DNA of 64,000 bases from Candidatus Aenigmatarchaeota archaeon (GTDB lineage: Archaea; Aenigmatarchaeota; Aenigmatarchaeia; Aenigmatarchaeales; Aenigmatarchaeaceae), in NCBI GenBank assembly GCA_043802485.1, contig JAZDKZ010000007.1:66048-130047 (forward strand), written 5' to 3'. Position 1 is the stretch's first letter, and the number at the start of each line of letters is the position of its first letter. The position numbers were made by a program, and so were the translations under genes. The notes beneath the pieces were generated by a model. The model was not told where the DNA came from, ran no database searches, and worked only from the letters and a program-made list of their open reading frames with translations. Of the stretch, positions 9,191-61,500 are shown in pieces.

Positions 9191-9226
9191 TCAATCTATA
9201 TATTCTGGGGAATGAATTTATCTATA

Positions 9227-9727: not shown

Positions 9728-9736
9728 TTATCTCTT

Positions 9737-11907: not shown

Positions 11908-11911
11908 TAAG

Positions 11912-12784
11912 ATGGACCTATGGCAGACACTCAAGCAGCTATCCTTCAAGTTCTTTGGAAGAAGTCTAGAACCCTTTATCAATTATTTTGACAGCATAAA
12001 GCCTGACCTGATAAGAGCAAACATCGGCCTGAGCCTCCAGGAATACGTATACATAATGTTCTTTGTGATACTTGCCACATTCATTGTGGAGTTCCCGTTC
12101 ATAGTCATAATAACATCGCTTCTGCTCCGTGACGCAATAAATGCTTTCCTGCTATCATTCACACTTACTGTGGTCATACTGATAGTCCAGTTCTTTATTT
12201 TCTATACTTATCCCAGCATGGTTGCTGGAAGGAGAAAAAAGAACATAGACTCGTCTCTGTCTTTTGCGACAACGTACATGGCGACTGTGGCCGCGTCAGG
12301 TGCCCCTCCCATCACAATGTTCAAGGTGATGGCAGAATTCAAGGACTATGGCGAGATATCACAGGAAATGGGCAAGATATACAGGGATGTTGAAGCTTTC
12401 GGGATGGAGCTTGTAGAGGCAATAAGGAAAACGGCAAGCAGGACGCCTTCTGAGGAGCTGAAAGAATTGTTGTGGGGCCTGGAGACAACACTGTCAAGCG
12501 GAGGGAACGTCGGAGACTTTCTGCACGAGAAATCAAGACTCTTCATAGCAGAGTACAGAAGAAGGCTGGAAAAGTATTCAAATACACTGTCGATGCTAAT
12601 AGAAGTTTATCTTACTGTTGTGCTCATCGGTTCCATTTTTTTCATAATCATGACAGCGCTCATGTCAATCATAGGAGGAAGTTCGGGCACGTTCATGATG
12701 TTTTTGCAGTTCGCAGTAATTTTCCTAGTGCTGCCATTCGTTTCAATAGGGTTCATTTTATTGGTTAAGACGATATCGCCTTAA
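11912..12784 (+). CDS. Pilus membrane platform protein (TadC/PilC, T2SS-F family)
   Basis: Multi-TM; RTPSEELKELLWG...SGG signature; follows the ATPase. Confidence 0.92.
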   Translation: MDLWQTLKQLSFKFFGRSLEPFINYFDSIKPDLIRANIGLSLQEYVYIMFFVILATFIVEFPFIVIITSLLLRDAINAFLLSFTLTVVILIVQFFIFYTYPSMVAGRRKKNIDSSLSFATTYMATVAASGAPPITMFKVMAEFKDYGEISQEMGKIYRDVEAFGMELVEAIRKTASRTPSEELKELLWGLETTLSSGGNVGDFLHEKSRLFIAEYRRRLEKYSNTLSMLIEVYLTVVLIGSIFFIIMTALMSIIGGSSGTFMMFLQFAVIFLVLPFVSIGFILLVKTISP

Positions 12785-12786
12785 GC

Positions 12787-13773
12787 GTGAGAAAGATGAA
12801 AAAGAAAAGCGACAAAAAGTTCGATGTCAAGGAAATCGTGTCAAACATAAAGCCGACGCAGATACCGTTCATAGTGGCCGGCTTTATCATACTTCTAGGG
12901 CTGGCTTTCTACCAGAACGTCGGTGTGATGTGGAACCTGATTGTGCTGGGCATAATAATCGCAGTGGCGCCCTACGCTCTCATAACCTATTTCGAGTATG
13001 CAAAGATCAAAGCGATAGAAGACCAGCTGCCAATATTCCTGCTAGACCTAGCCGAATCGCAAAAGGTCGGCCTAACTCTGCACGAGTCCCTGAAGCAGGC
13101 ATCCAAAGTGGACTATGGCAAGCTGTCGCCCGAGATAAAGAAGGTCTACCACCAGCTTTCGTGGGGCATAAGGGTGCAGGACGTGTTCGAAAACTTTTCA
13201 AAGAGGATGAAAAAATCAAAGCTGATATCAAGAGTAGTGAGCATAATCAACGAGACGTATATTTCTGGGGGCGACATCGGAAGGACAATGGAATCCACTG
13301 CCTCTGACATAACAGCCATAAACGAGGCTGAGAAGGAAAGAAGGTCGGTGACATCACAGCACACTTTCATCATGTACGCGATATACTTCATCTTCATAGG
13401 GATAGTCGTGGGCCTATCCCAAACGCTAATACCTCTCCTCAGCATCGGAGCTGAAGGGCAGGCGGCAGGAGGCATTGGAGGCATATTCTCTTTCGAGGAC
13501 CCATGCATACAGTGCGAGGGCTCCAACGATATACTCTGCATAAACTGCCCTATCTTCTCTGTAGTATGCCAGATGCTGGACCTTGAGTCTGGAGGAACTT
13601 GCTACTACAATGCCCTGTTCGTTCTGATGGCAGTGGTCCAGGGCATATTCTCGGGCCTGGTCGCAGGACAGATAGGGGAAGGCTCTGTATCAGCCGGCTT
13701 GAAGCACAGCCTGATAATGACAATATGCGGCTTCAGTGCTTTGGTGATACTGCTGAAATTCGGGTTTATGTGA
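12787..13773 (+). CDS. Second pilus platform protein (TadB/TadC, T2SS-F family) with a Cys-rich loop
   Basis: IEDQLPIFLLDL, DYGKLSPEI, QLSWG, SGGDI, QGIFSGLVAG...GLKHS. Confidence 0.92.
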   Translation: MRKMKKKSDKKFDVKEIVSNIKPTQIPFIVAGFIILLGLAFYQNVGVMWNLIVLGIIIAVAPYALITYFEYAKIKAIEDQLPIFLLDLAESQKVGLTLHESLKQASKVDYGKLSPEIKKVYHQLSWGIRVQDVFENFSKRMKKSKLISRVVSIINETYISGGDIGRTMESTASDITAINEAEKERRSVTSQHTFIMYAIYFIFIGIVVGLSQTLIPLLSIGAEGQAAGGIGGIFSFEDPCIQCEGSNDILCINCPIFSVVCQMLDLESGGTCYYNALFVLMAVVQGIFSGLVAGQIGEGSVSAGLKHSLIMTICGFSALVILLKFGFM

Positions 13774-13777
13774 TGTT

Positions 13778-14197
13778 ATGAAAGGCCAAATGAGAATCGA
13801 GTTCATTGCAGGGATATTGATATTCGTCATAATAATAGTCTTCATTGTCAACCAGACCAACATAACTTTCTCAAACCTCCTGACCGATTCTAGGGCAGAC
13901 ATACTGAAAGCAAAGGCTTTGAACTCGATAACAATACTCACGGAGGACGTAGGAAACGATAGGATCGGTCTGGCAACAGCGCCGCTGGAACTTTCGATGG
14001 TAAAGATAAACAATCTTGATGCAAACTGCCAACTGCTGGAAGACTTTGAACTGGGATCATACAGGCTAAAGATTTACAATTCCACAAGCATGATACTTTT
14101 CTGTGGCTACGAAATGTCATCGCCGCCAAGGTCGATAGAAACCAGGTACGTAAAAATAGGGAACGATTATGGAAACGTAACATTGGAGTTGTGGTAA
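13778..14197 (+). CDS. Minor pilin-like protein
   Basis: MKG|QMRIEFIAGILIF leader with E+5. Confidence 0.82.
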   Translation: MKGQMRIEFIAGILIFVIIIVFIVNQTNITFSNLLTDSRADILKAKALNSITILTEDVGNDRIGLATAPLELSMVKINNLDANCQLLEDFELGSYRLKIYNSTSMILFCGYEMSSPPRSIETRYVKIGNDYGNVTLELW

Positions 14198-15322
14198 ATG
14201 AAAGGCTTTGTATACCTGCTGGAGATAGCCGTGACGTCCATACTCATAGTGGTGATACTAAGCACGTTCTTCGGGATAAGAGTGAAGCAGAACTGGGACA
14301 CCTCTGACTTGATAGGCGTAGGCAACAACATAATAAACTACCTAGACAAGGACGAAAGCTTCTTCCTGAAAGTTCTTGAAAAGAATTTCACCTACATCGA
14401 AAGCACAAAGCCTGCCAACATAGGCTACGGTGTTAAGGTAAGGGGCTCCCCAAAAACAGAGATAATCGTTGGATGCACGCAGTCTCCTCTCTACCAATAC
14501 ACAGAAAGCATTCTTACTCCCGCATATGTCAACAACAGGTTCATCACATTCATTATGGAGGATTATGACATAAGGAATGACATACCAAACCATCTTGACG
14601 CCATTGTCCTTATCAACTTTACAAACTATACGATAGAGAAGGATAAGATACTGAAATATCTTGACGAGGGCGGTGTTGTCATCGGGATAAATGCAACCAA
14701 TGTAAACAACAACGCTGATTTCAACGAAATATTCGGTCTATCATCTCCGGGATTCCCGAGCGGTGCGAACACATTCGTTCCATATAATCCTTCAAAAGAG
14801 GATGTGGAAAAGTACTTTATGGGAATAGGCTTCGATGTTACGGATGAATGGTACATATGGGAAGAGCGATGGACAGTCACATATGGTTCAAATTACATAA
14901 ATGTATCAAAGGGTGGCGAGGAAAGAAACTTCCTGAATAAAGGAGAAACGTTTGACTTGAACGGCCACACGTTCAAGGTGAACAGAATAGGTTCTGGAGA
15001 AGCCAACATCCAAGCTACCAGAACAGGATTCATCTTTGAAGATTTTTCTGATTTAAATGATGTGCAGGGCAATAAGATAGTGGGACCTGGAAGCGCAGCA
15101 TCAATGGCGTCCAACGGGAAGGCGATATGGATATCTGACTTTCCCTGGAGCGACGAGTACAGAACCCTGGTAAAGTCTGCCATAATCTCGAGAAACGACG
15201 AGTGGACTGCCAGAGGAGTTTACACGACAAGGGAAACCACGACAGTTTCATCGTTCTTTTCCCTTTGCTGCGACATGACCGAGGTCTCGGAACTAGAGTT
15301 AACATTGTGGTATGTGGTATGA
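14198..15322 (+). CDS. Large pilin-like protein
   Basis: MKG|FVYLLEIAVTSILIV leader; ends with LTLW like the preceding pilin-like ORF (LELW). Confidence 0.8.
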   Translation: MKGFVYLLEIAVTSILIVVILSTFFGIRVKQNWDTSDLIGVGNNIINYLDKDESFFLKVLEKNFTYIESTKPANIGYGVKVRGSPKTEIIVGCTQSPLYQYTESILTPAYVNNRFITFIMEDYDIRNDIPNHLDAIVLINFTNYTIEKDKILKYLDEGGVVIGINATNVNNNADFNEIFGLSSPGFPSGANTFVPYNPSKEDVEKYFMGIGFDVTDEWYIWEERWTVTYGSNYINVSKGGEERNFLNKGETFDLNGHTFKVNRIGSGEANIQATRTGFIFEDFSDLNDVQGNKIVGPGSAASMASNGKAIWISDFPWSDEYRTLVKSAIISRNDEWTARGVYTTRETTTVSSFFSLCCDMTEVSELELTLWYVV

Positions 15323-15951
15323 AATTCTGTTTCGTATGTGGGAAGAAGACTAACGAGCTTGTAGACGGGTACTGTGAAGACTGCTACAATGACAAGTTTA
15401 GCCTGCTGAAAGTGCCGAAGGAATTGACTGTCAAGATGTGCACCAGGTGCAACATGATAAAGCACAGGAACAGGTGGATGGATATAAAGGTAGAGGACGT
15501 CCTGAGAGACAAGATAGAAGTTCTTGGTAGGGCGGTGGACCTGAAGATAGATATTGATGACAATATAACGATAAAGGCTAAAGGCTTTCTAAAGGATTGC
15601 AAGAAATCAAAAAAGGAAAGCTATGACATAAGGCTGAAAATAAACAAGATAGTATGCCCCACATGCTCCAGAGCCTCTGGAGGGTACTATGAGGCAATAA
15701 TACAGTTGAGAGGAAAAACAGAAGAAGCCATGGATTTCCTGGTCGACCAGGCTGTCAAGGAACAGAAAAACTACAGAGCAGAACAGAAAGGCAGATGTTT
15801 CGACGTGTACATCATGGACAAGCACTTTGCCAACAGCGTAGCAAACGCGATGATAAAGAGATTCAAGGCCAGAATCAAGAAGAGTTTCAGGATTGTCACG
15901 AAAAAAGAAGGGAAAGATATTTATAGGAGCGTAATTGTAGTAAGGATTTAG
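15319..15951 (+). CDS. nmd3: NMD3-family ribosome biogenesis protein (short form)
   Basis: MKFCFVCG...CEDC...CTRC...CPTCSRASGGYYEAIIQLR; ATG overlaps the upstream stop. Confidence 0.9.
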   Translation: MKFCFVCGKKTNELVDGYCEDCYNDKFSLLKVPKELTVKMCTRCNMIKHRNRWMDIKVEDVLRDKIEVLGRAVDLKIDIDDNITIKAKGFLKDCKKSKKESYDIRLKINKIVCPTCSRASGGYYEAIIQLRGKTEEAMDFLVDQAVKEQKNYRAEQKGRCFDVYIMDKHFANSVANAMIKRFKARIKKSFRIVTKKEGKDIYRSVIVVRI

Positions 15952-44115: not shown

Positions 44116-44595
44116 ATGAATTTATCCAAATTGTTTTTCCTGGTGACAGCATTCACGCTGTTCCTGACAGTTGTGCAGCTGTTCGGCTACTGGGTTCTTG
44201 AATTACTGATTATCATGCTCATAATCGACTTTCTCACGCTGACAGCAAGCGTGCAATTGGGCAGCAGAAACCACCCAAAAGGCAACCCGAACGGCAAGGA
44301 CGTTGCCACAAAGCTGGACGCCATAGACAAGAGGTGCACAGAAATCTTCGACAAGGTGAACAATTCTACGCTGGAGACAAAGCTTCAGAAGCATGGAGAG
44401 GACATTACATATATCCTTGACAAGATGGCCAGAAAGACCATGGATCTGGAGGAGAAGATAATAAAGTTCGGCAACGGCATGGTTGACTCAATGGCAGGCC
44501 TGAAGGAAAAGGTTAATGACATTGAAACCAAGAAAGATGGAGATTCTTTCTCCCTAGGCGAGCTGGTCTATGTCAAGGATGAAGAAGATTCTTAA
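44116..44595 (+). CDS. Two-TM plus coiled-coil hypothetical protein
   Basis: N-terminal hydrophobic hairpin, charged helical C-terminus. Confidence 0.75.
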   Translation: MNLSKLFFLVTAFTLFLTVVQLFGYWVLELLIIMLIIDFLTLTASVQLGSRNHPKGNPNGKDVATKLDAIDKRCTEIFDKVNNSTLETKLQKHGEDITYILDKMARKTMDLEEKIIKFGNGMVDSMAGLKEKVNDIETKKDGDSFSLGELVYVKDEEDS

Positions 44596-44617
44596 AGCTT
44601 TTCTTCCAATTAGTGTT

Positions 44618-44890
44618 ATGAAGTATTTTTGGGCTGCCTTTGGGCTGGTGATAGCAGTTTGCATAGCTCAGCTGCTCACCCACATGAGCCTTGAGCTCAC
44701 AATAGTGCTTTTTTCAATAGATTTCATGATTCTGGGGGCAGAACTGCTGAAGAACAGGGCCAACAAGTCGCTAGTAATAATCAAATTGGAAGGCATAGAG
44801 ATGGCCTTTAATGACGCTGCAAGCAGCTTGGTTTCCCCTTCTTTGAAGGCAAAGGGCCAGGAAATCATAGAATGGCTGAACAAATTCTAG
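44618..44890 (+). CDS. Two-TM hypothetical protein, probable paralog of the upstream gene
   Basis: QL...LEL.I....IDF..L shared with 44116-44595; ATG 44618 avoids overlap. Confidence 0.65.
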   Translation: MKYFWAAFGLVIAVCIAQLLTHMSLELTIVLFSIDFMILGAELLKNRANKSLVIIKLEGIEMAFNDAASSLVSPSLKAKGQEIIEWLNKF

Positions 44891-44944: not shown

Positions 44945-46268
44945 TGTCGACCTATTGTCGAAGACTGTAGAACTTTTTTCGACTATCAACCCTTGACAGC
45001 ATCATGCCTTCGTCTTCCATCTGCTTCAGGTACTCGTTGCACCTTGTTCTCGACAGTTTGATCAGTTGACTCAACTGGGAAGGCGTGATCTCATTGTACT
45101 TTTGCAGTATCATCTTGATAGCCTCCTTGGTCTTGACGGCTATGGTCCTCTGCTGCAGCTTTATACCTGTCGAAGAAATGGTGTCATCAATATTGAGTAC
45201 TTTGGCCTCTATTCTGTCGATTTTCTGGCCTAAATTCTTCAGTCTCTCAATCTCTAAAGCCATCTGCGCGTAACGCATGTCGAGAAGCTTGACGATTTTC
45301 CTCAGATTTTCCTCTTCGTCATTCTTCGACCTAAAAACAGATTTGAACATGATATATATTCTTTCATTTCCCGATATATAAAATTTCTCGACAATTGATT
45401 TTTTCTCGTATTGTCGATTTTCTGACGGTTTCCTTCTCTTGTCGCCTATAATACCATCGACAGAAAGATTTGTATTACAAAATCTTGGCCAAACGTATTG
45501 TACAATACTGTATATGTGATAGTCGATGGTTAAAAAGGACCCTATAAAATCTATAATTGAAGCCTTGAGGATGAATCCTGAAGGCTTGACGCTTCTTTCT
45601 CTGGCAAGTGTGACAGGGCTGCATCGACACACATGTACAAAATACATCAATGAATTGTTGAAAGCAGATGTTGTCTACCAGCGAGATGTCGGTGTGGCAA
45701 AGCTTTGCTACCTAAAAAAGAAAGTCGAGAATAACGCAGAAGAGGACAGGCTGGTGGCAAGCCTCAAAAAGAAGAGAAGGGGGAAAACCCAGCTAAAGCT
45801 CATGGTTGCTGTCGTTATCCTGACTTTCCTGCTGAGCGAGACAGCAATCATAGCCTACGCAAACAACACCATCCTAAACATGACGAACACGTCGAACATA
45901 AACACAAGCCCCATGACAAGCACATCGAATGTGTCGGATCTTACAGCCTTTTTCAATGAGACATCTGACCTGAATGAGACCGGAAATATTACTGTCGAAC
46001 CGCCGTCAGTTCCGAACCTAACGGATTCTGTCGGAACTGTCGATTATACTAACTATAGCTCAGAAAGCCAAAATAACGGCGAAAATACCACTTTTAACGC
46101 AACTTTTTTGACGGAAAACGTCACCATTTCTAACCAAACAGACGACATGAACACAACTGAGAACCAAACGAATGCGACCGATTTAGGCGCTTCGAACGCG
46201 TCTGACAACCAAAACCAAACAATTGACATCGAAAACCTGCTCAATGGGACATCCATAGGAACTGTCGA
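44945..46268. repeat. Array of TGTCGA/TCGACA hexamers (13 exact copies), putative operator array
   Basis: Copies at 44945, 44956, 45050, 45168, 45215, 45278, 45388, 45412, 45457, 45624, 45993, 46038, 46263; perfect inverted repeat TCGACAAT-N14-ATTGTCGA at 45388-45417. Confidence 0.7.
44952..45350 (-). CDS. Coiled-coil plus C-terminal winged-helix DNA-binding protein (132 aa)
   Basis: Probable start ATG 45350 (MFKSVF); ITPSQLSQLIKLSRTRCNEYLKQMEDEG...RKKFYSL. Confidence 0.85.
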   Translation of the reverse strand: MFKSVFRSKNDEEENLRKIVKLLDMRYAQMALEIERLKNLGQKIDRIEAKVLNIDDTISSTGIKLQQRTIAVKTKEAIKMILQKYNEITPSQLSQLIKLSRTRCNEYLKQMEDEGMMLSRVDSRKKFYSLRQ

Positions 46269-46539
46269 CCCGACATTTGATGTTCAGTTGGTGTATCCCC
46301 AGAGGATAACCAGAGGCGAACTGATTGGGATAAGGGCCGAAGCCTCAACAGACACGTTTGCCAAGAACGTATACCTGAAATGGTTGCTGCCTAAGGGCTT
46401 TGAGATAGTCTCTGGCAATGCCATAGAGGCATGTGATGACATGAACGCCAGTTCCTGCATATCAGAGATAGAGGTTAGGACTGATTTGACTGACATTGGC
46501 CTGAATGACATAAGAGTTGTGATGGAATATGAAAAGTAG
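45526..46539 (+). CDS. Membrane-anchored wHTH protein (wHTH, TM, N-glycosylated linker, Ig-like domain)
   Basis: PEGLTLLSLASVTGLHRHTCTKYINEL...DVGVAKLCYL; TM LMVAVVILTFLL; many NxS/T; C-terminal WLLPKGFEIVSG beta-sandwich. Confidence 0.85.
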   Translation: MVKKDPIKSIIEALRMNPEGLTLLSLASVTGLHRHTCTKYINELLKADVVYQRDVGVAKLCYLKKKVENNAEEDRLVASLKKKRRGKTQLKLMVAVVILTFLLSETAIIAYANNTILNMTNTSNINTSPMTSTSNVSDLTAFFNETSDLNETGNITVEPPSVPNLTDSVGTVDYTNYSSESQNNGENTTFNATFLTENVTISNQTDDMNTTENQTNATDLGASNASDNQNQTIDIENLLNGTSIGTVDPTFDVQLVYPQRITRGELIGIRAEASTDTFAKNVYLKWLLPKGFEIVSGNAIEACDDMNASSCISEIEVRTDLTDIGLNDIRVVMEYEK

Positions 46540-49500
46540 TGCCAAAACAGGACAGAGCCAGCTGCTGATACCTCTGCTGGTCATAATAACCTCTGCAGTG
46601 GTATTCGCTACCAACGTGACCATGAACTGGACCAACCAGACGCCTATAACAGGCTATTACATGGGAATTCCCAATTCTTCTTCGCAGGAATTCTCGTTCA
46701 CGATAGAGGTATGGGCTAACACTTCTATTTCTCTTTCTAAGGAGGGCGACCTCATAAAATCCGTGCTTCTGATGGACAACGGCTCTGCTGTTCCTGGCCA
46801 AAAAATCGATTTCTTCCTGAACAACAGTCCTATTTATTCTGACACAACTGACAAGAACGGTCTGATTGATTTTCCCTTACCTTTCAACGGAACTGCCAGG
46901 GCTGTTTTCTCTGGTGGAAATTATCTGAACCCATCCGAAAACGAGATGGTTTTTGGTGGAAAGGCTGAATCTGTTGTAAAAAGGACTGATTCTTTTGTTC
47001 TCGAGGTTTTGGAGGTAGAGCAGGGCGAGATAAAGATAGGAGAACCTGTCAAATGGATTAGAGAATTCAAACTAACTAACCCGAAAGACAAAGACTCATT
47101 GGCAGAGCTTATCTTGGATATCCCTGACGAGGCCTTCAACATAACAGTTTCTGAGAAGGGTTCGAAGAAGCTGGTGAACATAGCCAAGAAAATCATTAAA
47201 GAGAATCTCAAAGCAGGTGAGAGTAGGGAGTATTTGCTTGAATATTATACAGATTCTCCTGTACTGAACGAGAATCTGATAAGCAGATACAGAAAACTAA
47301 TCAATGTCAGCTCACCCATCCACTACAGCAACGTTCCGGCTTATACTGACATCGAAGAGTCTCCTATAGATTCGATAAGGCTCTACTGGATTAGCGACGG
47401 GCAGAGAATAGACGTCACAGGAGATCCTTTGTACAATGTCAGCTTTGTCGATTCAGACGGGGACGGCCTGATAGACAGGCTGGAATGGAATGTTCCGCAT
47501 CTTTCCGAACAGCTGTTCGAAGTATCAATCACTGTTTTGAATCCATATACATATCTTAAAGATGGAGATAACTGGATAGTAGCCTTTGAAACTGTTGGAA
47601 CTGCGAACCTGACGATTAACTCCACCAACGCAGGCTGGATAGAATTTCTTACCGACAATCTGGAAACCTTTGACGAGATGAGTTTCCTAGATATAAGATG
47701 CGGAGACGCATCTTTGAAGGATTCGCTCCAATTAATTGATTTTTATGGCAATGTCTACAACTACTCTGATTTGTCAGATAACAATTCAATAGAGATAGAA
47801 CATCTATTCATCCAGAATTATTCATGTGATGAAACAGGTTATATCACAAACAACATGATAAGATCTGGTTATGCCACTCTCCAATTTACTTTTGGTGATC
47901 AGACAGCTTTTGCATACGACCCTGCAGTTGTCTGCAACTGGTCTACAGATACTGTGAACTGGGCTGACCAACAGGGTGGTGGTGGTTCTGCATGGGGAGT
48001 TGCGAACACCACTTGGAATGTGGGCACTAACTGTAGCCAAGCTGGTGGTCCTTCTACAGGATGCTATATTGCTAATATATCGATAAACATGTACGGTGCT
48101 TCGGCAAGCCCTGCTTCTGGTGGATTGGGTTTTGTAATATTCAGCAACAATTCGACGCAGTTCTTTCCCATGGCAATAGATAAGACTGGTGCATATACAT
48201 ATGGTCCTGTAGATTCCTGTGGAGCCAGTAACAATCTCACTGGGTCAGGATGGCCGAGTGGTCCACCAAACGCAACTCCAAATACATGCAACCTGAGTTC
48301 TACTAGCCGGTTTAATGTAACAAGGTACACGGTCAATTGGTATATACCAGGTAAAGGTTCGATATCGATACCTACAATTAAATATCAATGGTGCTGGGAA
48401 GACGCGTTTCCAAAACTGGACAATCCTGTTGTAAACGGTAGTCAATCTAGTCATAGCTCTGGATGGGGAAGCACATTCAATTTTTCAGTAGCGTTGTGGG
48501 AACCTCAGAGACAAGAGACGAATGTGAGTCTATGGTATACACAGACCGCTGGAACCGGCTGGATGTTCGCGGGTTCAAGGAATATGACAAACCCGTCGAA
48601 CCAAACACCTGGCAACATGACCAACTTAACAATGAAGTTCCTCTGTACTGGTGGAACAATAACAGATGAATATTCAAATGATTTAGGCGTTTTAGGCGCA
48701 GGCAAATACTACAAGTTCAATGCAACGGATTCAACCTCTAACAAGAATGATACTTACAATACATATGGCAACATATATTTCATACCTACAAAAGACAATG
48801 TAACCGTCACCAACCTTACGCCAACAGCTGACGTGACAATAAACAGAACCGATACAACAAGTTTTGTTGTCAGGGTCTATGATAGCGAAAATCAGAGTTA
48901 TGACGCAGGACAATCAGGAAAGATATGGATATCTACTTATACATACAACCAGAACACAAGCTTCCTGACAAGCACTAATGATACGGGTCATTTGGTACAG
49001 AGCTTTTCTAATGCTGTTTGGTGTGAAGGTGCAGAGACGAATCAATACTACCTTGGGGTGCATCATTGGGGTGGTGGAACAGAAAGTGACTCTTGTGTTA
49101 AAAACAACCTGACAGAAAAATCAAACTTTACTTTGATGGGTAGTTTATATAACACCTTGAATGAGCCAGACGGAACATCAAACTTTACTCAAGACGACAC
49201 GATAGATTTCACAGTCAGTGTATTAGACGATTGTGGTGAAGATAGAAAAATAGATTCTACGGTAAACATAACAATGTCGCATGACGGAACCGAATATTGG
49301 TGCATTGCATCTGCTGCTGGTGAATGTTCCATAGACACTGATATAACGTTTCCAACCGGCTGGTACAATGTCACTGTCGTATCTAATAAAACATACCATA
49401 ATAACGGGTATTCATTGGACCAAGACCTATTCTATCTAGATCCTTACAGAGGCTTCTTCAATGAAACTGTTGACCCGAGCTCTGCTTATTACAGCTACAA

Positions 49501-52500
49501 CAACTGGAACTTTTCCGTCAACGCGACGTCAGGCAACACGGACCAGATGAACATAACGCTTTACCTCAGGCCTGCAACAGGAGGCTATTCAAAATGTACA
49601 TCATGCCTTAACCAGACGACAATAGAGTGCGTCAACTGCTTCAATCAGACTTATTACTGGTACAGAAACTTTACCTCGGAAGAAACAGGCACATGGTACT
49701 ACCAGTTCAGAATGTACAACCACTCAACTGGCTACCTAGAGACGCAGACGACCGAAAAGTCTTTCTACGTCGACCCTGTCCCGGAAATAAAGATATTCCT
49801 GGAGGACGTGACGCAGACCCCCCCATCAGCACAGTGGGGAGGCACTCCTTTCACCTTCAATGTCACCGTGAACACCACAGGGGTGAACAATGCTACCGTG
49901 TTCCTGTGGGTTGGGAACAGTTCTGGCGGCCCATGGACATTGATAGGACAGGAAAATTATACCATACCTGGCAGTACATGGCAGACCCTGAACTTTACAA
50001 ATTATTTCGGCTGCGGTGACATTGGAACCAAATGGTTCTTCTTCAACACGACTAACTACAATATGTCAGTAAACTCGACAACACCGCAGAGCTTCACGAT
50101 AACAAAGGACACCATATATCTGGATTATAGTGTTGGTTATAACACAACCGCCAACAGGGCAGGATCGCAGACAGACCTTCTTGTCTTCCGAGCCACAAAC
50201 GCCAACGGAACCTACATGTCCAATTTCCCAATAAAGTATTACGTCACATCCGCCAACACGTCCCAGACCTACTATTCTGACGAGAGTTTTGTCAACGGAA
50301 CTAACAGCACAGGTCATGCCAACTTCTATTTCGACCCGACCTGCCTGGAAGATTACGATGGTGCTCCTAAATTCCGAGTCGGAGAGCAGCAATGGAGGGC
50401 CCAGCTGAACGACTCAGAGCTGAGCTGCTATTACCAAAACACTAGCTCTGATTATATTTACAGGAACCTTTCAGTTAAAGGAAATATATTAATAACAATA
50501 ACCAACCCGGACGGCACGGCTAACGTTACTCAATTAAGTCCAATAACCTTCCTTGGTTACAGCTACGACGACTGTGACGACGCATTGAAACTCAATGTCA
50601 CACCAGGCTATGAGGAGATAAAGTACTATGCGAACAACAGCACAACGTACGGCTTCGACTGTGGCCAGTCCACAATAATAGGTGCCAACGCATACCAGTG
50701 CAACTGGCAGACCAATATAAACACACCAACGCAGGCGTACAACGGCTCAATGTTTGTCAACAGAACCAACTATTACCTAAACCAGACGCTGGAAGATGCT
50801 GGCAGGGGTTGGCTCTTCTACGTGATACCGTTCAGGGAGTTCAGCGGCAAGTCTGTATCACCTATGTCGGATCTTTGGGACCATGAAAACTGGAACTTTT
50901 CCGTCAACGCGACATCAGGAGACTATAACAACGAGACCATCGTATTGCAGCTGAAGAAAGGTTCAGAGGCATGGCAGAATTGTGAGGACGTTCTGGCAGA
51001 ATGCTCCAACATGACAGCAACCAACTGTACGCACTGCGTCAACCAGACTTATTTCTGGCACGCCAACTTTACCGAAAGCGACGCAGGAACATGGTTCTAC
51101 AAGTTCCAGATGAACAACAGCGACACGTTGGAAGTAGATTATGAAACTTCAGGAACCGACAGCTTCAACGTTCTGCTGACCGACGTCAAAATATTCCTGG
51201 AGAACGTGACAAAATACCCGTCTTCAGGAAGCTGGGGCGGAGGCAACTTCACCTTCAATGTCACCGTTAACACCACAGGAATTAACAACGCGACTGTCTT
51301 CCTTTGGATTAGCAACAGTTCTGACGGGCCTTGGACGCTGTTGGGACAGAAGAACTACACCATAGGAGGCAGCGCTTGGCAGACCCTGAACTTTAGCAAA
51401 AGGTTCGACTGCTCTGATATAGGGACCAAGTATTTCTTCTTCAACACCACGAACTACAACGGCTCCAAGAATCTCACCACCTCCCAAAGCTTCACAATAA
51501 CAAAGGACGACGTGATAATAGAGTACATATCAGGAAACAACACGACAGCCAACAGAAAAGACGGACAGGAAGACGACCTTTCTGTCAGATTCAAGGACGG
51601 CAACAACACTCTGCTCGAAGGTCTCAATGTAACATATTACATAGAGACCAACAGCTATGTCTATGACAGCGGAAACAGCATTCTCGTGGACTCTGATGGT
51701 TTCGCGAACTACTCTTTCAACCCGACGTGTACTGACCCAAGGTATGATGTAGGTCATCAGAACTGGAAGGTTGCTGTTGCTCCTAACGAGTACACGTGCT
51801 ATCAGGTCAACGACACTGACAGCGCAGGTTTCGCTCTGAACCTGACAGTGATGGGCGATTTCAACATATCATTCCTCTGGCCGCAGACTGACAACAAAAC
51901 GATTGGCGACCAGGTTAGGTTTGAGGCCTCCATATGGGACGACTGCCAGGTAGAGCTTGGTACTACAACTGTCAGGTACAATGCAACCAATGCCCTGTTC
52001 AACGACGAGTGCTCTGTCGTGACCAGCCCTGTTACAGGTTATTATGCTTGCGCTGAAACCCCAGGAGGTTGGTCTTCAACAGGAGCAAGGGAAGGCTGGT
52101 ACAACGCCACTATCAACGCGACGAAGAGCTTCTACTATTCAAACATAACTACAAAATCCGAACAGGGTATCGGACATTTCTATTTAAAATTGGACCCTGT
52201 ATTGTCTAGTCAAACTGTCACGCCTTCTTCAGGCGGCTGGGCAAACGACAGGAACTTTTCTGTCAATGTGACAGACGATCTGGCTGACAATGTTACTGTC
52301 AAACTGTGGCATAGAAGTCCTGGAGGGACTGGAAGTTTGTGGGAGCAGATAAACGGTGCCAAGTGGTGCACTGATTGTAATAACACTAACGTTAATTGGA
52401 CTGATATAGAGTACAACTGTTCTTTCGTAGGCACAGTTGATTACAAATTCAATGCAACCGACGAGGAAAGCAACGCCCACGAAATATCAGCTTCCTTTAC

Positions 52501-55500
52501 AATAGCAAATGACAATGTTTCTGTAACTAATCAGACACCAATAGGCAGCGCTATGATAAACAGGACTAGCACTACTTACTTTATTGTCGAGCTGTATGAC
52601 ACCGAGAACGCTTCATATCCTTTGGACGCAGAAGGAAAGATATGGCTGACGACTTCCGACGTCGCAACGTGGGAAAGCGATGTAGACGCACCCACCAGAT
52701 ACTCTAACATGTCGGGCCAGATAAACAGGTCAATGGGACCTATCCAGTGGGGATGCGAGGAGACCTATGTCCTTGGCAACCACTATTGGAAGGGAGGCTC
52801 GTATGGTTCCAACTGCCCGCCAGGTTTGAAAGACAATGTTACTGGCAACGTTCTGTTTACCTTGATGGGAACATTGTCAAACACATTACAACAACCCCTG
52901 GGAACGCAAAACTTTACCGTCGGCTCTGACATACATCTCAACGGAACGGTATTGCAGGACGGTTCGTGCGGCGCTGCTACAGGAGCCAGTGTTGACTATA
53001 ACATCACCAACGGAACACATGCCTTTACTTGCAGCGCCCTGCACCAAGGAAACGGCATTTTCAACTGCAGCTGGAACAGCGCAGGCAAATCGACCGGCTG
53101 GTACAATGTCACCATGATATCGTATGACAGCAACTTCCACAACGGCACTGCCTCTCAGACCAATGCCTTCTACCTGAGAAGCCCCATACTGCTGGAGGAT
53201 TTGGACATTGACCCGGACGGCGGTGGTAGCTATGGTTACTCACCGTTCAACTTCTCAGTAAACGTTACTGCTTCTGATGACGAGAACGTAACGGTTTACT
53301 TGTATTTGTATAACTCGACGCACAGCTGGCTTGATAATCAGAGCTACTGTACAAACTGCGACAACACCTACTTTGAGTTCTCGAAGAGCTATGACTGCGC
53401 CAACATCGATTCATGGCAGTACAAGTTCAACGCGACTTCAGACACAGGAGCATCAAACAATTCGTTATCACCGGCAGGCTTTTCTGTTACAGCTGACACT
53501 ATCTCCATTGTCTACGGCTCTGGCAACGAGTCCAACGTCAACAGGAGCGACTCGATGTCAAACTATGAGACTAGCTTCATTGTAAGAGTACTGGACACGG
53601 TCAAGAACCAGTATGTGACTGACGTTCCTCTTGGAAATGTCCACGCATATGCAAAGATAAACAGTACAACCTGGATGGAACTGGCAGGATCTTTGGGAAC
53701 TGTCGGCAACAACTCGACCCATTACAATACCACCTTTAATCCTAACTGTTCATTTGCTGCTGGAAAGAGGGAGTGGAAGTTCAATGTTTCCAGCGCTACC
53801 TGTTATGCCAATGCAGAATCAAGCAGCTACAATGTGACTGTTCATGGCAACCTTAGTGCCTATTATCTGTCGCCGACAGGCGGAGCGATATATGACCTGG
53901 GTGACAGCGTATCGCTGTCAGGCAACCTGTCCGACGAGTGTTCAAATGACATCAGCGGATCCAACGTCCAGTTCCAGCTGGACTCTGATTCCAGCACATA
54001 TTACTGCGACTCACCGGGAAACCTGACAGGCAACGTATACTCTTGCAACTGGGACTCGACCGGAAATGACGTGAGCCTCTACAATGTTACGATGATATCC
54101 TGGAACAACTCATACAACAATGGCACGGACTTTGAGCAGGATGCGTTCGAGATAAGGTCCATACCAGACCTGAACGGGGCTGACGTCAACCCCAGGGCTG
54201 ACGGATGGGTGAAGAACTTTAACTTCACCGTCAATGTCACGGATAATCTGGGAGATAATGTCACTGTATATTTGTGGGAGTCTGATGACGGAAGCGAGCC
54301 ATGGACTCAGATTGGTTCCTTACAACAATGTGAGAACTGTTCTAACAAGACGCTGTGGTGGATAAAGAACTACACATGCTCGGACAAAGCCAATGGTGTG
54401 TCATTCAAGTTCAATGCAACCGACACGGAGAGCAACAGCTACGAGACGTCCCTGGGAGCTGGCGACTATGTGGGGGACAGCAGGACGTTCAACATAGAGA
54501 TGAACAACATTGGCATAGAATACATTTCAGGTAATGAGACCAACGCCAGCACGACTGATCCCACATTATTCGTTGTAAGAGTATATGATATCGATAACTC
54601 TTCGAGTTATCTGATGAATCCATCAGCAACAATAGCCTTCAACGTTACCAAGCAGGGCTTCGGCAGTAGCTTCTACACGGTAGGCGGGAACAGCACCAAC
54701 TCGACCGGTTACGTCCACTACTACTTCCTGCCTGACCAGACCTTCGCCTCGGTGAAGCAGAACTGGACGGCCTTCACCTCAACCAGCGAGGGATGCTACA
54801 AGATTAACACGTCAGGTTATTACAATGTGACAACCCAGACGCACGTTCCTTTAATAGAGAACGAGACAGTTGACATTATAACAGGCGGATGGGGAGACCA
54901 GAGAACGTTCAACGTCTCTGTCTATGATGCGAACGACACGGCCAATGTAAGCATGTGGAAAGCCTCGAACATTGTAGGTCCTTGGAATCTTGTCCACTCT
55001 GATAATTACACTGATATAGGAAACTGGGAGAATTTCAGCTTCCTGATAAATTACACGTGCGGCGACAAAGGAACATGGTATTACAAGTTCAATGTAAGCG
55101 ACAGCCTGAACAACACTAATACCACGGCAGAGTCCCTGCAAAGGAACTATACTATAAACAAGGACGCTGTCATATTCGAAGATTTCTATGGAAACAACTC
55201 AATAGCTAACAGGAGTGCTAACCAGACTGATATGTTATATTTAAGATTGAGAGACGGCAACGGCACATACCTTTCGAACTTTAACGGGACATTCTACGTT
55301 ACTTTGGACCAATCGACAGGCAGCTGGCCTAGCACAGGTGTTGAAAACTTTAGCAACAGCAGCGGTTATGTCCACTATTACTTCAACCCGGGTTGTTCAC
55401 CAAAGAATCTGGTAGGAGACCAGCTTTGGAAAGTTGAGGTCGGCGACTCTTGTTATGAGACAAATAGCACTAATACTTCAGGTGTATATCTGAACCTGTC

Positions 55501-58500
55501 TGTGATGGGAAGCATAAATCTTACATTCAACAGGCCGAATGGTCTCCAAAACTTTACTCAGGAAGATTCAATACTATTCCAAGGTTTTACGTATGACGAC
55601 TGTGACAACTCTTTAGTGCCCAACGTGACCTTCTATGCCAACAATTCCACAACATATAGCGCAGAATGTAGCGACGTTCAGAAGATTGGTGAGAACGTAT
55701 TTGAGTGCAGCTGGCAGACCACCATAGAGACGACCAGAGGATGGTACAACACAACGATGCAGGCGAACAAATCCTATCATTACAATAACTTTAGTGTAAA
55801 TTACGGGAGTCCTGGTCTGTTCTATCTGAAACCTGTTTATAAAATAGAAAACGTTTCAGGAACGCCTACAACGCAAGGCTGGGGTTATCTTAACTGGAAC
55901 TTTACCACAAAGGTTTCTTCAGGCGACCCAGATACAAGCTATCCTGTGCTGTTATACATGAACAAGGGATCTCCTGAGTTTACCCTGTCATGCAGCGGTT
56001 CTGTATGCCTTAACCAGACGCCAGTAGATTGCATCTATCCAGATTGCGTTAACCAGACGGTCTTCTGGCTTAGGAACTTTACATACGACGACCAGGGAAC
56101 ATGGTTCTTCAAGTTCGAACTGGACGGAGAGGAGACTTCTGGAAACGACATCGTGTCTGTGGTCAAGGACAGCATAAACATAACACATAATCTAGGGAAC
56201 AATGAAATAGTCAACAGAAGTGGATACCAATCACAAATGTTTATTGTTTATGTTAACGACACTGTAAGAAACCAGTCAGCAACCAATCCATATACCACAG
56301 TATACTTCAATGTCACGAATAACAGCATCAATTACAAAACATACGGTTCCAATTCCACGAACGGAACTGGTTATTCTAACGTGAGCTTCAACCCAGACTG
56401 CACCTATTCGAACGGCACACAGAATTGGTTTGGATATGTCTATGGAGATTCCAACTACAACAACGCTAATTCAAGCATATTCAACATATCAATATACGGA
56501 GATTTGGAACCAAAGAACGTTAACACATACAATTCGACTGGAATAACAGACATATTCTTCACAGGGGACACTGTGAACATCACAGGTTATGTCGAGGACG
56601 ATTGTGATAACCCGATATCAAACGAAACCGGAATAAATGTTACCTTTGAAATCTACAAGAACTCTACGTACCCGCCTCAGGCAGATACTTTTTGTTTTGA
56701 TGTGACATACTTCGGCAACGGCGTCTACAACTGTCTATGGAACTCTCAGGCATTCGAGAACGGGACTTATATAATAAGGATGAACGCAAGCAACGTGAGC
56801 TTCCATAACAACGGGACGCACACAAAATGGGGAGCGTTCGGAATGGAAGTGCCGCCAAACACGCCGCCTGTCGTAGAAAACGCGAGCGTCACACCAGACC
56901 CTGGAGGCTGGGGTTCTGTATTCAACTTCAGCGTGGACGTGACAGACGAGGACCCGTTACAGAACGTTACCGTGTTTTTCTGGGAATCGCCTGACGGAGT
57001 CGCATGGAGCTTGATAGACAATCAGACTTGCGCCGACGAATGCACAGAAGCCAGCTCGACAACAATGTACTTTATCAAAAATGATTACAGCTGCCAGGAA
57101 CAAGGCACAAGATACTTCAAATTCAACGCAAGCGACAACTCCAGCACAGCAAACAAAGATTCTCTAGATGATGGTCCTTATGATTTTAATGTAACTAAGG
57201 ATAACATACAGTTCTTAAGTGTGGTAGGGAATGAGGGAACCGTTAATAGGAGCGGGAACCAGAACGTATTCCTTGCGATTATGATTAACGATACGACAAG
57301 AGGCGTCTTAGTAACCTCGAACGTGACCGCTGGAAGATTCTGGGTAACTTATGATGAAAACGCATGGGATGTAGGAAGCGCCAACAGAACGACAAATTCC
57401 TCAAGCTATATGAACTACACTTTCAATCCTAACTGCACTCCAAGGTACAATGTAAGCAACTCTCAGAAATGGATGGCCGGCGTTTTGAACGATACCTGCT
57501 ATGTCGACACCAACAGCTCCAACTATTCCTTGACAATAAAAGGCGACCTATCTAACTCGATCATAGGACCTGCAGGCGAAGTGGCGTACGACCCCAACAA
57601 CATAACCCTGTTAGGCAACATAACGAGCGACTGCAACGACGACTCTATAATAGACGCGAACGTCACTTTCAAGCTCTCTCATGAAGCGTTTACCTACTAT
57701 GCTTATCCGAATCCTGCAAACAACAACATAACATTCTACAATGCCACCCACAACGTTACAGGAACGCCCGGCGGGAATTATTCAATAACCATAAACTCTT
57801 CCAGAAGCCTTTACAACCCACACAACACGACAACTTCAAATGCTTTCCATCACGAGGTGGACCCGTTGCTCACGAACGAGTATGTCTCTGCTGAAACCGC
57901 AGCCTGGGGAACAACATTCGATTTCTACACAGCAGTCACTGACGATGATGATACAGCTAATCTCACTCTGTGGATAAGATGCACTGGAGGCAACACGACA
58001 AACAACCCAGATTTCATTTGTAGCCCTGCGTCTAATTTTACAGCAAAGGGTTCTCCAACATCACAAACATGCGAAGACTGCAACAACCAGCAGAAGAGCG
58101 CAAGCTGGATCAGCAACATACCCGGTCATATAGGTAACTACGAGTGGTTCTTCAACGTGTCAGACCTTTACGGAGGTTCCAACAACACAACAGTGAAAAC
58201 TTTCAATGTCACGAGGAGAAATGTTTATTTCAATATAATTCAAGGTAACAATTCCAATGTAAGTAGAATAGGCACAAACAAAACGTTGCTTCAAGTAAAG
58301 TTAGTAGACGCGTTCGATGACGGAGAGATTGGCGGCGTACAAGTTAAATTCTATGTAACACTTGACGGTTCTGTATGGGATTCCTCAGTCCTAAATACAA
58401 CAGATATTACCACCGGTTATGGTGATTACTACTTTAATCCTGGCTGTCCATCTCCATTTTATAAAACAGGCAGGCAGTGGTGGAGAGTCGCCTTTGACCA

Positions 58501-61500
58501 GACTAATGCTTACACCACAGGTAGTTCTGCTAACTATACTGTAAATATAAACTCGACCCTTAACGGCACTGTAATATATCCAACAGGACAGACGGTGTTC
58601 TCGATAGGCGATAACATACATATAATAGGAGAACTGAGAGACGAGTGCGAATACATAACCAATGCCGGCAGTGTTGTTTTCAGGTCAGGTGGATGGTCAT
58701 GCAGCCCAGAACCTGCAAACAATGTAGGAAATGGTACGTACAACTGTTCTTTAGATACGGGGTCTCTAGGAGTTGGTATATACAACATAACAATGAACTC
58801 TAGCAAATCATATTATTATGATGATTATACTGTAGAACAAAATGCCTTTGAAATAAGAAAATACCCAGAGCTATCAAATGAAAGTATAACACCCGATACT
58901 GAAGGTTGGGGATTCAACTATACGATAAATCTTTCTGTGCATGACACGGACACTGGAGACAACGTAAATATAAGTCTGTGGAAGAGTGTTGGTGGTGGCG
59001 AGTGGACTTATGTAGCATCACAAATTTGTTCAAGCGGACTTTGTACAAACCCGACATCATTTAACTTTTATCCTCAGTTCAATTGTAATGACTACACAAA
59101 TGGACCTGATATCAACTTCAAGTTCAATGCCAGCGATGATTACGGATTAAGTGATGAAACGTCTAATTTTTCCGCAACGTTCCAGAAAGACAATGTAACA
59201 TTCACAATTATTCAAGGCGGAGGAATAATAAACAGAGAAACCGAGACAAGGACGTTTACAGTCATTGTGAACGATAGCGATAGAAACAACGAATCCGTAA
59301 ACAATTCTCAAGAAGTTGTAGACGGTAATTTCTGGTTCAGTTATAATTCTGCACCAACTTATGATGAGGGCCACAGCGTTCAGACAAATACCACGGGCCA
59401 CATGAGTCATGGCTTTGATCCAAACTGTACTTATGAGGTCGGGACAGAATATTGGTATGTTGGGATAAGTGGCAATGGTTGTTACGCGGATACTGCTACA
59501 GGTCAAACCGCAAACACCTATGTTTTGAGAGGACAGCTCAAGTCCAGCCTTTATGAACCGATGCAATACGACATCTTCAACGTCACGGACAACGTGACTT
59601 TGAAATGGAACGTCTATTCTGACTGCAGCAACGAGGGCAACATAACAAGCGTGAGCAACACGGTAGAATTGAACAACTATGGCAACGAGTCCAGCTGCGC
59701 GTCGCCGCAGGAAGGCGCCTTGTCAGGAAACTACAACTGCACCTGGGACTCGACAGGAGAGCCTGAAGGCAACTGGACAGTTAACATAAGCGCAAGTAAT
59801 TCTGACTATTACAGCAACTTTACCAGCTATTCAAATTGGCTCTACCTAGACAACCTCAATGCCACAGGCACAGACCCAACGGTTAATCCGTCAAGCGGTG
59901 GTTGGGGAACAACCTATACCTACAACATAACAGTCAACGACTCTGAGAACGACACTGCGTCCTGTATGCTCTATACCAACACCAACGGTACCTGGGTCTA
60001 CAAGGGAATAGACACAATAACAACACCTGACAACTGCTCTATTTCAGTAAATAACTTCAACTGCCAGGACCAGGGAACTGGAAGCTACTACTTCATAATC
60101 AACGACACTTACAACGTCATAAACACCTCAGAAACCCTTGGGACCACAAGCGGCCCTAACATAGGAAAGGACACTGTAACTGTCACGCAGATTTCAGAAG
60201 GTGGCTATCCTAACTATTATGTTAACAGGAGCAGTGACCAGACAACAACAATGGTGCTGTTGGTCAACGACACTATAAAGAACGAGCAGCCCAACAACAC
60301 TAATGTAACGGTCTGGGTTACTACTGACGGCAGCGTCTGGGATTCCGGTAACGTTGTCAATACGAACAACACTGGTTATGCGTCTTACATCTTTAATCCG
60401 AACTGCAGCGCACCCTTCTATGATGTAGGCAACCAAACATGGATAGCTGGAACCAGCGATTACTGCTACGAAGACACGAACACGACATCAAACTTCAGCA
60501 TGAAGATATACGGAGATATTTTATCAACAGTGATAGAACCTATAGGAAGCCAGACCTTCCTGCGCGGCAGCAACGTAACTATAAGAACGAACACAACAGA
60601 CGATTGCCAGACACCGATAAACATAAAAACAATAAACATGACATCAATACAAGGCGCCAGCGAATATGGCTGCTCGTCCATTGAGAACGAGACTGACACA
60701 GGCTTCTATAACTGCACCTTCAACACCAGCTCGCCTTTCCTCATGCCGGCAAGATACTACAAGATAAGGGTCAACACCACAAAAGATGATCATAACTACG
60801 GGGACATGAACGAGACGGACGCCTTCTTCATAGAGACAGAGCCCGTGATACAGAACGAGAGCGTCAGTCCGGAAGAGTCTGGATGGGGTTCCACATACAC
60901 CTTCACTGTTAATTTCACTGACGAGGACCTTGACACTAACACAGTCACAGTATGGTTCAGAAAGTGTACTGACGAGACCTGCACTGCACACAGCCCCGAC
61001 TGGTCAGGAGCAAACTCCATAAGTAACAGCTCAGTGTCAGGAATCAATGTCTCAGTATCTTTCAACAAGGATTGGATATGTGATGACATAGGATATTGGC
61101 AGTACAAGTTCAACGCGAGTGATTCCAGAGGTTATACTGATGAAACATCTATTCATCAGTTTAATCTGACCAGAGACGATATAGTAATAGAGCATTTCTA
61201 CGGAAACAACACTACTTTCAATAGGAGCATATCAGAATCACGAATCTTAAGTGTAAGGATATGGGATATAAACAGAGGCATATATATTGGGTCACCACCA
61301 GTACAGGCGAGCGGAAAGTTCTGGGTGACCAATAATACTTTAAACAATTTCATCGAAGTTTTCTCCACAGTCGGCTCAGACACAAGTTATATGAATAGAA
61401 CGTGGTCTCCCGACTGCACCTTTGAAATAGGACCGCAGAAATGGAAAGTTAACATAACGAATGACGGTTGTTATCAGGATAATACAAGCCAGGACTTCAA

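Follow-up and report, generated by a model that had tools for sequence, protein, structure and literature searches.

A conserved TGTCGA array and two winged-helix genes ahead of a giant, probably SPEARE-type surface protein in an aenigmatarchaeal genome

Genes at the locus

The window analysed here is a stretch of 64,000 nucleotides from a Candidatus Aenigmatarchaeota archaeon, in which two small genes for winged-helix proteins lie divergently ahead of a very long surface protein gene. P1 (44952..45350, minus strand) encodes a soluble regulator of 132 aa, made of one 59-residue, coiled-coil-like helix and a winged helix with the invariant recognition helix LSRTRCNEYL. Pfam matches it to HTH_24 above the cut-off, fold searches gave generic winged-helix matches only, and an atlas search led to the family's own cluster. 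P2 (45526..46539, plus strand, 337 aa) joins a DNA-binding domain to a membrane span: a winged helix (residues 1-63) and a helix running into one membrane span (70-119) are followed outside by a disordered stalk rich in N-x-S/T (120-243) and a small Ig-like beta-sandwich (250-336). Its head has winged-helix matches with Z up to 10.8 and only weak Pfam matches (HTH_24, HTH_20, MarR_2), with no OmpR-type winged helix among them, and the topology of P2 is that of a transmembrane transcription regulator. An earlier note on this DNA had described the same pair, a coiled-coil/winged-helix protein and a winged-helix-membrane-ectodomain protein overlapping the giant gene, and this gene order is borne out, with an overlap of 11 bp from 46529.

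The P2-type head is absent within 750 bp from 47 of the 84 loci. Paralogous loci encode it as a separate soluble protein, 12 loci have it fused to a long surface ORF, and in some genomes it forms the N-terminus of the giant itself (14,236 aa in G247). Moreover, head and ectodomain each occur without the other. An invariant Ala follows the membrane span in 57/57 homologues. Before the hydrophobic span P2 carries K-T-Q; near homologues have K/R-[STA]-Q in 23 of 57 cases and no such motif in 34. By a count made by eye, 18 of 35 head-membrane fusions, spread over families, retain G-Q. The genome encodes one prepilin peptidase, a Peptidase_A24 protein of 273 aa. EppA is described as much larger than this, and the class III (prepilin-type, EppA) signal motif is K/R-G/A-Q before a hydrophobic span (PMC4371748). 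The Glu at +5 of class III signal peptides is absent in P2 and in the giant; several of the genome's small pilins do have it.

The giant gene (46529..64000, plus strand) is open to the contig end, and its 5,824 aa without a stop, with 387 N-x-S/T, read as a giant extracellular repeat protein. Shared repeats suggest that its probable continuation is the open frame of 4,407 aa with which contig C4 begins; this frame closes with a membrane helix and a HerA/VirB4-like ATPase. A contig overlap between the end of C7 and the start of C4 was not found. Whole orthologues (10,144-14,236 aa) end in the same two elements. Among eight relatives read through, five have the C-terminal membrane helix and the ATPase in the same chain (G013, G247, G168, G193, G174), while G201 was in pieces, G143 ran off the stretch and G050 was without the ATPase end. 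The ATPase is 73-87% identical between families and weakly matches DUF87, HerA_C, T4SS-DNA_transf and CedD, and the gene downstream of its end encodes a 728-aa coiled-coil protein.

By its architecture, rather than by comparison with named SPEARE sequences, the giant is probably SPEARE-type. As described in the accessible text of the SPEARE papers, the giant membrane-anchored extracellular proteins of Nanohaloarchaeota share with it the giant ectodomain and, given the probable continuation on C4, the membrane helix near the C-terminus, the cytoplasmic HerA/VirB4-like ATPase and the terminal coiled coil, and Hamm et al. noted similar sequences in Aenigmarchaeota (PMC6642349; PMC10266531). It differs in being larger (10,144-14,236 aa) and in that no second ATPase follows in this genome. 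The criteria given in the same accessible text are at least one laminin-G domain (Hamm 2019) and, immediately after the giant gene, another gene for a VirB4-like ATPase (Reva 2023). Here, the window part and C4 8000-13222 gave no Pfam LamG match, and the genome (G000) gave one ATPase match, with no second VirB4-like gene directly downstream.

The TGTCGA array and its conservation

Thirteen exact TGTCGA/TCGACA boxes lie within 1,324 bp (44945..46268, on either strand), at 44945, 44956, 45050, 45168, 45215, 45278, 45388, 45412, 45457, 45624, 45993, 46038 and 46263. One is just past the P1 stop, five are in P1, three are intergenic and four are in P2. For the whole array, the genome rate of 415 in 768,849 bp leads to an expectation of 0.71 (Poisson P 1e-12); the remainder of the window holds 49 sites in ~62.7 kb. 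These counts agree with the earlier note, which had reported 13 exact hexamers in ~1.3 kb against about one by chance, roughly one per kb elsewhere in the window, and sites in the divergent promoter and in both coding sequences. The sliding-window counts and the codon null that it had proposed point the same way. The array is the top window genome-wide for the hexamer (12 sites, next 6; 1,325-bp windows on a 100-bp grid), and the best TGTCGA cluster ranks 4th among all 2,080 hexamer pairs. Under codon resampling from the genome's own usage, the P1 gene has 5 sites against a mean of 0.39 (0/20,000 resamplings reach 5) and the P2 gene 4 against 0.41 (P 0.0003).

The TG flank matters, with 13 of 21 TCGA carrying it in the array versus at most 415 of 2,381 genome-wide. 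A longer consensus around the hexamer was looked for, but no conserved flanks were found, orientations are mixed and spacing is irregular; for a motif this short, specificity is therefore assumed to come from clustering. The hexamer is also common in the genome, with 415 copies. In a search for a genome-wide regulon, the 19 other sites outside crude gene calls were not enriched, and TATA-plus-box matches elsewhere in the genome fall within genes. A cluster of 6 sites at C4 51.7-52.2 kb is borderline, and a stronger non-coding array exists elsewhere in the genome, on C2. The DNA contigs of three runs cover the stretch, and 0 of the 40 variants shown (of 388) fell inside boxes, too few to count; a search for RNA data sets carrying the stretch listed none.

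The array is kept in relatives. All 26 close Aenigmatarchaeota loci, from 11 genera, are enriched at P<0.001 (236 sites vs 7.2 expected), there is a single such cluster per genome, and this locus accounts for 12 of the 71 sites in the G013 genome. Among the 64 distant P1 homologues, by contrast, 33 fall short of enrichment at P<0.01 and 10 have no more than one site, in spite of a similar recognition helix. The idea of the earlier note that homologous pairs might also carry an array thus holds for the close loci and fails for these distant ones. L010, which is not a family member, and 33 weaker places were left out of the locus comparisons. The array tracks the soluble P1 and not the membrane-tethered P2: loci that lack the P2 head (L016, L022-L027) retain it, and it is absent where a P2-type head stands without P1 (the genome's own C6 locus, G008, G006, G018). 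P1 was found in 114 of 301 genomes of the class and co-occurs with the giant's ATPase (55/74 genomes vs 59/227), with 59 of the 114 P1 genomes having no ATPase match (E<=1e-130) and 19 of the 74 ATPase genomes no P1.

Synonymous codons in P1 are held to spell the box. One box (45050..45055, minus strand; 27/90 loci) falls on the codons for Leu-Ser-Arg in the recognition helix of P1 itself, where Ser is TCG in 22 of 26 cases vs 31 of 261 for other Ser. Another (44956..44961, plus strand) comes from the last codons, Leu-Arg-Gln, with Arg as CGA in 25/26 vs 32/229 for other Arg. In this archaeal regulator, selection for the operator has thus clearly shaped the codon choice of the gene that encodes it. 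Chance or codon bias as the source of the array was rejected by the enrichment, the codon resampling, the codon constraint and the conservation.

Promoter geometry and a second palindrome

A putative TATA-like box of P1 can be read at 45374..45383 (minus strand), ~30 bp before the P1 ATG, and directly upstream of it a TGTCGA box (45388-45393) would occupy the BRE position. The TATA-like box of the surface operon (45447..45453, plus strand) is taken from the A/T pattern before the outermost box in relatives, and 3 bp downstream of it lies the main operator candidate, TCGACA (45457..45462, plus strand). The middle promoter box (45412..45417, plus strand) is 45 bp from this 45457 partner, the pair straddling the surface-operon TATA box. 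The TATA-N3-TCGACA geometry is fixed across families (68 of 90 loci, those with a site in that range), A/T reaching 0.91-0.99 at -9..-6 before the outermost box in these 68 loci, and sites peak at the two TATA boxes. Convergent pairs are spaced by whole helical turns, at 23-24, 33-34, 44-48 and 55-57 bp with a period of 10.5-10.7 (P 0.001-0.003 vs uniform spacing with one count per genus or family, among 24 tests run and with kin sharing spacings). Divergent pairs gave no significant phasing and same-direction pairs were marginal. The window contains the two spaced palindromes picked out by the earlier note, but with spacings of 24 and 17 bp, which are not among the conserved ones.

A second operator candidate, TGTACA-N4-TGTACA with one mismatch, lies at 45499..45514 (no strand assigned), 11 bp before the P2 start. 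It occurs in 33 of 37 loci with a P2-type head vs 1 of 47 without, and is the predicted operator of the P2 head itself. This site was absent from the earlier note.

Proposed control of the surface operon

It is likely that the SPEARE-type surface operon is autoregulated by two repressors, whose predicted binding would occlude the promoter with the help of auxiliary operators. P1, presumably an oligomer, would bind the TGTCGA boxes, and at the main box between TATA and the surface-operon start it would block the archaeal pre-initiation complex, repression rather than activation being the sign we infer. The partner box whole helical turns away and the boxes in both genes may serve as auxiliary operators in a bridged or wrapped complex, and the boxes at P1's own TATA box would bring about autoregulation. 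The P2 head would bind the separate palindrome in the 5' leader, and since one message encodes both P2 and the giant, such binding would amount to negative feedback on the giant's output. Autoregulated multi-site control of the giant, a part of the earlier note's switch, is supported by position, conservation and co-occurrence, while the link of the array to the membrane protein gives way to P1.

LacI (O2/O3), GalR and DeoR are looping repressors with auxiliary operators in coding DNA. As proposed, the P1 array resembles theirs in a main operator at the promoter, auxiliaries hundreds of bases off inside genes, and helical phasing, and differs in a P1 without a recognised ligand-binding domain, a different fold and the archaeal basal machinery. 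Most characterised archaeal regulators are repressors acting by promoter occlusion, and in the accessible text of PMC5569661 MDR1, LrpA, Lrs14, NrpR and the viral AvtR and SvtR share with the control proposed for P1 sites on or behind TATA, autoregulation, a divergent promoter and several operators. P1 differs from them (PMC5569661, accessible text) in its long single helix plus winged helix instead of an Lrp or RHH fold, and the array in its isolated hexamers paired over helical turns and its boxes in the regulator's recognition-helix and last codons. P1 might instead be an activator or gene-specific initiation factor, the box behind TATA being a positive element and the array concentrating P1, as the rigid TATA-N3-TCGACA spacing and the P1-side box at the BRE position in the window's family would allow. 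We consider this unlikely: sites between a TATA box and the start overlap the polymerase footprint, and the box is missing from related surface operons that have no P1, which are presumably expressed all the same. AvtR, as the accessible text has it, acts on a divergent gene both as activator and as repressor, and a GTC motif downstream of the TATA box was proposed there as a positive cis element in SIRV, which leaves activation some room (PMC5569661).

The earlier note had the membrane winged helix sense an outside cue via its ectodomain and switch a TGTCGA nucleoprotein complex. P2 has a suitable topology and is co-translated with the giant, but the array does not follow P2, the head is missing or soluble at the loci noted above, and the outside part, a disordered stalk plus a small beta-sandwich, occurs without the head as the head does without it; the invariant Ala is also what would be expected if signal peptidase cuts the ectodomain off. 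Coupling to a cue is thus quite unlikely. The same note's alternative of a centromere-like or membrane-tethering site fits poorly and is very unlikely. As worked out here, P1 would spread from the array and, with P2, hold the chromosome at the giant's envelope site. In its favour, the sites extend over 1.3 kb, reach into coding DNA and form a single cluster per genome, P1 combines a long helix with a winged helix, and one member is membrane-bound, joined to a long surface ORF at 12 loci; yet the sites peak at two TATA boxes, P1 is confined to 114/301 genomes and goes with the giant, the membrane head is often absent, and the stronger non-coding array is on C2. Partition systems encode their ATPase together with the centromere-binding protein, whereas none adjoins this array and a MinD-like gene (read by eye) is 10 kb away. 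Iteron origins consist of long direct repeats that all point the same way and adjoin an initiator gene. The short repeated motif and the palindrome TCGA in all boxes recall iterons, as the note had also suggested, or clustered methylation sites of an epigenetic switch, both extremely improbable: flanks are not conserved, orientation is mixed, spacing is irregular, the TG flank matters and no initiator gene adjoins. Highly improbable, too, is a DNA-transfer loading site, at which P1, in the role of a relaxosome at a transfer origin, would mark the locus for the giant's ATPase; the matches and high identity of the ATPase suit it, but no relaxase or nuclease was observed beside the array, the sites are accounted for by promoter geometry, and the ATPase has been read as a secretion ATPase elsewhere (PMC10266531, accessible text).

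For P2 as a second repressor, a bolder version can be put forward only tentatively and with considerable doubt, namely that its head is a repressor and at the same time part of a signal peptide. The head fronts a signal-like span flanked by prepilin-type G-Q (in 18 of 35 fusions) and signal-peptidase-type Ala (in 57 of 57), and each exported molecule might leave one DNA-binding head behind that represses its own operon. Secretion and processing would then drive a counter for a megadalton host-contact machine, acting jointly with a phased P1 loop, the operators of which lie in the codons for P1's recognition helix. The ToxR/CadC family proper has an OmpR-type winged helix. P2 shares with the ToxR/CadC/TcpP type a cytoplasmic winged helix, one membrane span, an outside domain and the predicted control of a surface structure (PMC10269533, whose main text does not mention DPANN or Aenigmarchaeota). 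It differs in a head that is not OmpR-type by Pfam, is optional, soluble at some loci and fused to the giant at others, and in a predicted operator downstream of the promoter.

SPEARE-type giants are prime candidates for the attachment of DPANN to their hosts and the exploitation of these. In the accessible main texts of the SPEARE papers no upstream regulator or operator appears, with 0 matches for 'helix-turn-helix' and 'helix' (PMC6642349; PMC10266531), and a literature search, mostly without full texts, found no paper on the P1/P2 regulator pair. The array in a tiny symbiotic-type archaeon offers a first testable handle on the control of such proteins. With two DNA-binding domains small enough to express, a pair of predicted operators for which natural losses serve as controls, and promoter geometry that is fixed, the giant's regulation becomes testable in vitro without culturing the organism. 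The giant gene itself takes up ~4% of the 0.77-Mb genome, for a protein of >1 MDa.

A dense TGTCGA array at a divergent regulator pair

Thirteen exact TGTCGA/TCGACA hexamers (boxes) lie at 44945-46268, where the genome total of 415 (0.77 Mb, 7 contigs) predicts 0.71 (P 1e-12). On a 100-bp grid this array is the genome's densest window for this hexamer, with 12 sites against 6 in the runner-up; when the best cluster of each of the 2,080 hexamer pairs is compared, it ranks fourth. Synonymous-codon resampling gave 0.39 sites in the P1 gene and 0.41 in the P2 gene, where 5 and 4 are seen. The cluster that the earlier note had claimed, with about one copy expected by chance, thus holds in sliding windows and under a codon-preserving null. 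A genome-wide site search found no wider TGTCGA regulon, and boxes compared across loci share no conserved flanking sequence. The second densest window, borderline for chance, comprises six TGTCGA inside an AAA ATPase gene (contig C4, 51764-52203). The genome's strongest cluster of any hexamer lies outside the window on contig C2 (~7070-7500), where TTCACGTGAA-like repeats are arrayed in an A+T-rich intergenic stretch flanked by an AAA ATPase gene and a small gene of helix-turn-helix-like type. GATC is strongly avoided genome-wide (0.39 of expectation).

Judged by the source names of homologues, the organism belongs to Aenigmatarchaeota. P1 matches occur in 114 of the 301 genomes of the class, and 90 loci were analysed (the best 30 and 60 of 94 weaker places; L010, not a family member, was left out). 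The proposed search for local motif arrays at homologous loci was positive: every one of the 26 close loci, which span 5 families and 11 genera, shows enrichment at P<0.001 (236 boxes in total against 7.2 expected), as do 31 of 64 distant loci at P<0.01, while 10 of these 64 have at most one site. One relative, G013, carries 12 of its genome's 71 sites here. Sites are densest between the genes, at the P1 recognition helix and at the P1 stop, with a further peak inside the surface gene at a distance of about 1 kb. The recognition-helix serine is TCG in 22/26 close loci versus 31/261 other serines of the same genes, and the penultimate arginine of P1 is the rare CGA in 25/26 versus 32/229 other arginines; because kin are not independent, these counts are descriptive rather than exact probabilities. 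The recognition-helix constraint is absent in distant loci (13/64).

Two regulators, two candidate operators and promoter geometry

P1 (44952-45350, minus strand, 132 aa) is modelled by AlphaFold as a single 59-residue helix with a winged helix (pLDDT 89). For P2 (45526-46539, plus strand, 337 aa) the model has a winged helix, then a membrane-crossing helix, then a disordered stalk followed by a small beta-sandwich; in fold searches the hits were winged helices of a generic kind and Ig-like domains. Two genes for small membrane proteins (44116-44595 and 44570-44890, plus strand), each with a coiled-coil-like tail, end head-on at the P1 stop; the proteins belong to no known family, and similar genes lie beside P1 in most family relatives.

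The divergent winged-helix pair and its array stand as first described, but the array follows P1 and not the membrane head: it is kept where the surface gene lacks a DNA-binding head (L016, L022-L027) and absent at a paralogous locus with P2-type heads and no P1 (own contig C6, G008, G006, G018). A second palindrome, TGTACA-N4-TGTACA (45499-45514), is present with at most 2 mismatches in 33/37 loci where a P2-type head is encoded divergently and in 1/47 where none is; the head-less loci are the real control, because the palindrome was first seen in head-bearing loci. P1 would accordingly pair with the TGTCGA array and the P2 head with the TGTACA palindrome, as two putative operators. At a second locus, 260146-265076 of C6 (L136), and likewise at L137, L161 and L162, soluble winged-helix genes of P2 type (one or two) accompany a small signal-Ig protein and a further large surface protein whose N-terminus is the same; P1 and the array are both missing there.

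Judged from sequence, the boxes have promoter geometry. An exact site was present in the range examined at 68 of 90 loci, where, on the surface-operon strand, a TATA-like run ends about 3 bp before the outermost box (A/T 0.91-0.99 at -9 to -6); in the window the run is at 45447-45453 and the box at 45457-45462. By eye, most families have a box directly behind P1's TATA box; in the window's family the box stands directly in front of it. Convergent pairs of boxes are spaced 23-24, 33-34, 44-48 and 55-57 bp apart, a period of 10.5-10.7 (P 0.001-0.003 versus uniform spacing, one count per genus or family); among 24 tests in all, divergent pairs showed no periodic spacing and same-direction pairs were marginal. 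Distant families also show a tight TGTCGA-N0-1-TCGACA class (6-7 bp).

Probable repression by P1 and its alternatives

We consider it probable that P1 is a self-regulating repressor of the surface operon, with feedback added by the P2 head. P1 would occupy the box that separates the TATA box from the start, where a helically phased partner box and auxiliary boxes within both genes would help to hold it; it would also control its own gene, and the P2 head would feed back from the operon's 5' leader. Binding by P1 and P2, the sign of control, the oligomer and an inducer are all inferred here; archaeal regulators usually act by occluding the promoter, according to excerpts of PMC5569661. That P1 instead activates the operon from these boxes seems unlikely.

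The earlier note had coupled an outside cue to the adhesin through the P2 ectodomain, a role we now find unlikely, since the tether is optional: in the window the head sits on a small surface protein, in 12 loci it forms one chain with a long surface ORF (14,236 aa in G247), and elsewhere it is stand-alone and soluble, or missing. The membrane span next to the head resembles the signal peptide found in head-less versions. By eye, G-Q precedes it in 18/35 fusions, as in EppA-type prepilin signals (excerpts of PMC4371748). In the window's family the motif is degenerate (K/R-[STA]-Q in 23/57) and Glu+5 is absent. An alanine after the span is invariant (57/57), which fits cleavage by signal peptidase I, and the genome encodes a single prepilin peptidase. 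At L021 (G131) the head-membrane fusion appears by eye to run on into an intein/Hint-like segment, and 8721-15322 holds a type IV pilus cluster, also read by eye (pilins with K-G-Q and Glu+5, secretion ATPase, two platform-like genes).

A centromere or membrane tether is a still poorer account of the boxes, and the C2 repeats are the better candidate for an origin or centromere. We give very little weight to a loading site for transfer, and least to iterons or methylation sites. Repression by P1 remains our preferred reading.

The giant surface gene

The giant starts at 46529 (plus strand), with an open frame that runs on for 5,824 aa. Contig C4 opens with a 4,407-aa frame whose repeats match this giant only; a membrane helix and a HerA/VirB4-like ATPase form the end of this frame. 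Shared repeats, with no contig overlap, suggest that it continues the giant. Behind the P1/P2 pair of relatives, giants read through at 10,205, 14,236, 11,434, 10,144 and 11,403 aa, and these five of eight carry the ATPase (73-87% identity); of the others, one is in pieces, one is cut by the stretch and one lacks the ATPase. By coordinates, eight more genomes have an ATPase-ended frame of 9,076-14,526 aa starting beside P1, and P1 occurs in 55/74 genomes with the ATPase (match at E<=1e-130) versus 59/227 without.

By its predicted architecture the regulated gene is SPEARE-type, an arrangement of giant, membrane helix and ATPase already published (excerpts of PMC6642349 and PMC10266531), although a second ATPase downstream, a SPEARE feature, is missing at the window's giant. 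Each part has known counterparts: archaeal repressors with multiple operators, transmembrane regulators (excerpts of PMC10269533) and SPEARE giants. Literature searches, with most subscription papers and all supplements outside their scope, found no paper on the P1/P2 pair or its motifs, and excerpts of PMC13705601 mention neither Aenigmarchaeota nor such regulators.

Beyond the giant lies a conserved block (C4 13222-28310), the same in L138-L155, which encodes an acidic coiled-coil protein as well as small ones of this type, a HExxH protein of the membrane, a surface protein of 1,950 aa and a number of small secreted proteins; the relatives' version adds MinD-like and KaiC-like ATPases. Upstream of the window, contig C7 carries another, unrelated giant (1-15459, minus strand) of at least 5,153 aa, Cys-rich and almost without N-x-S/T.
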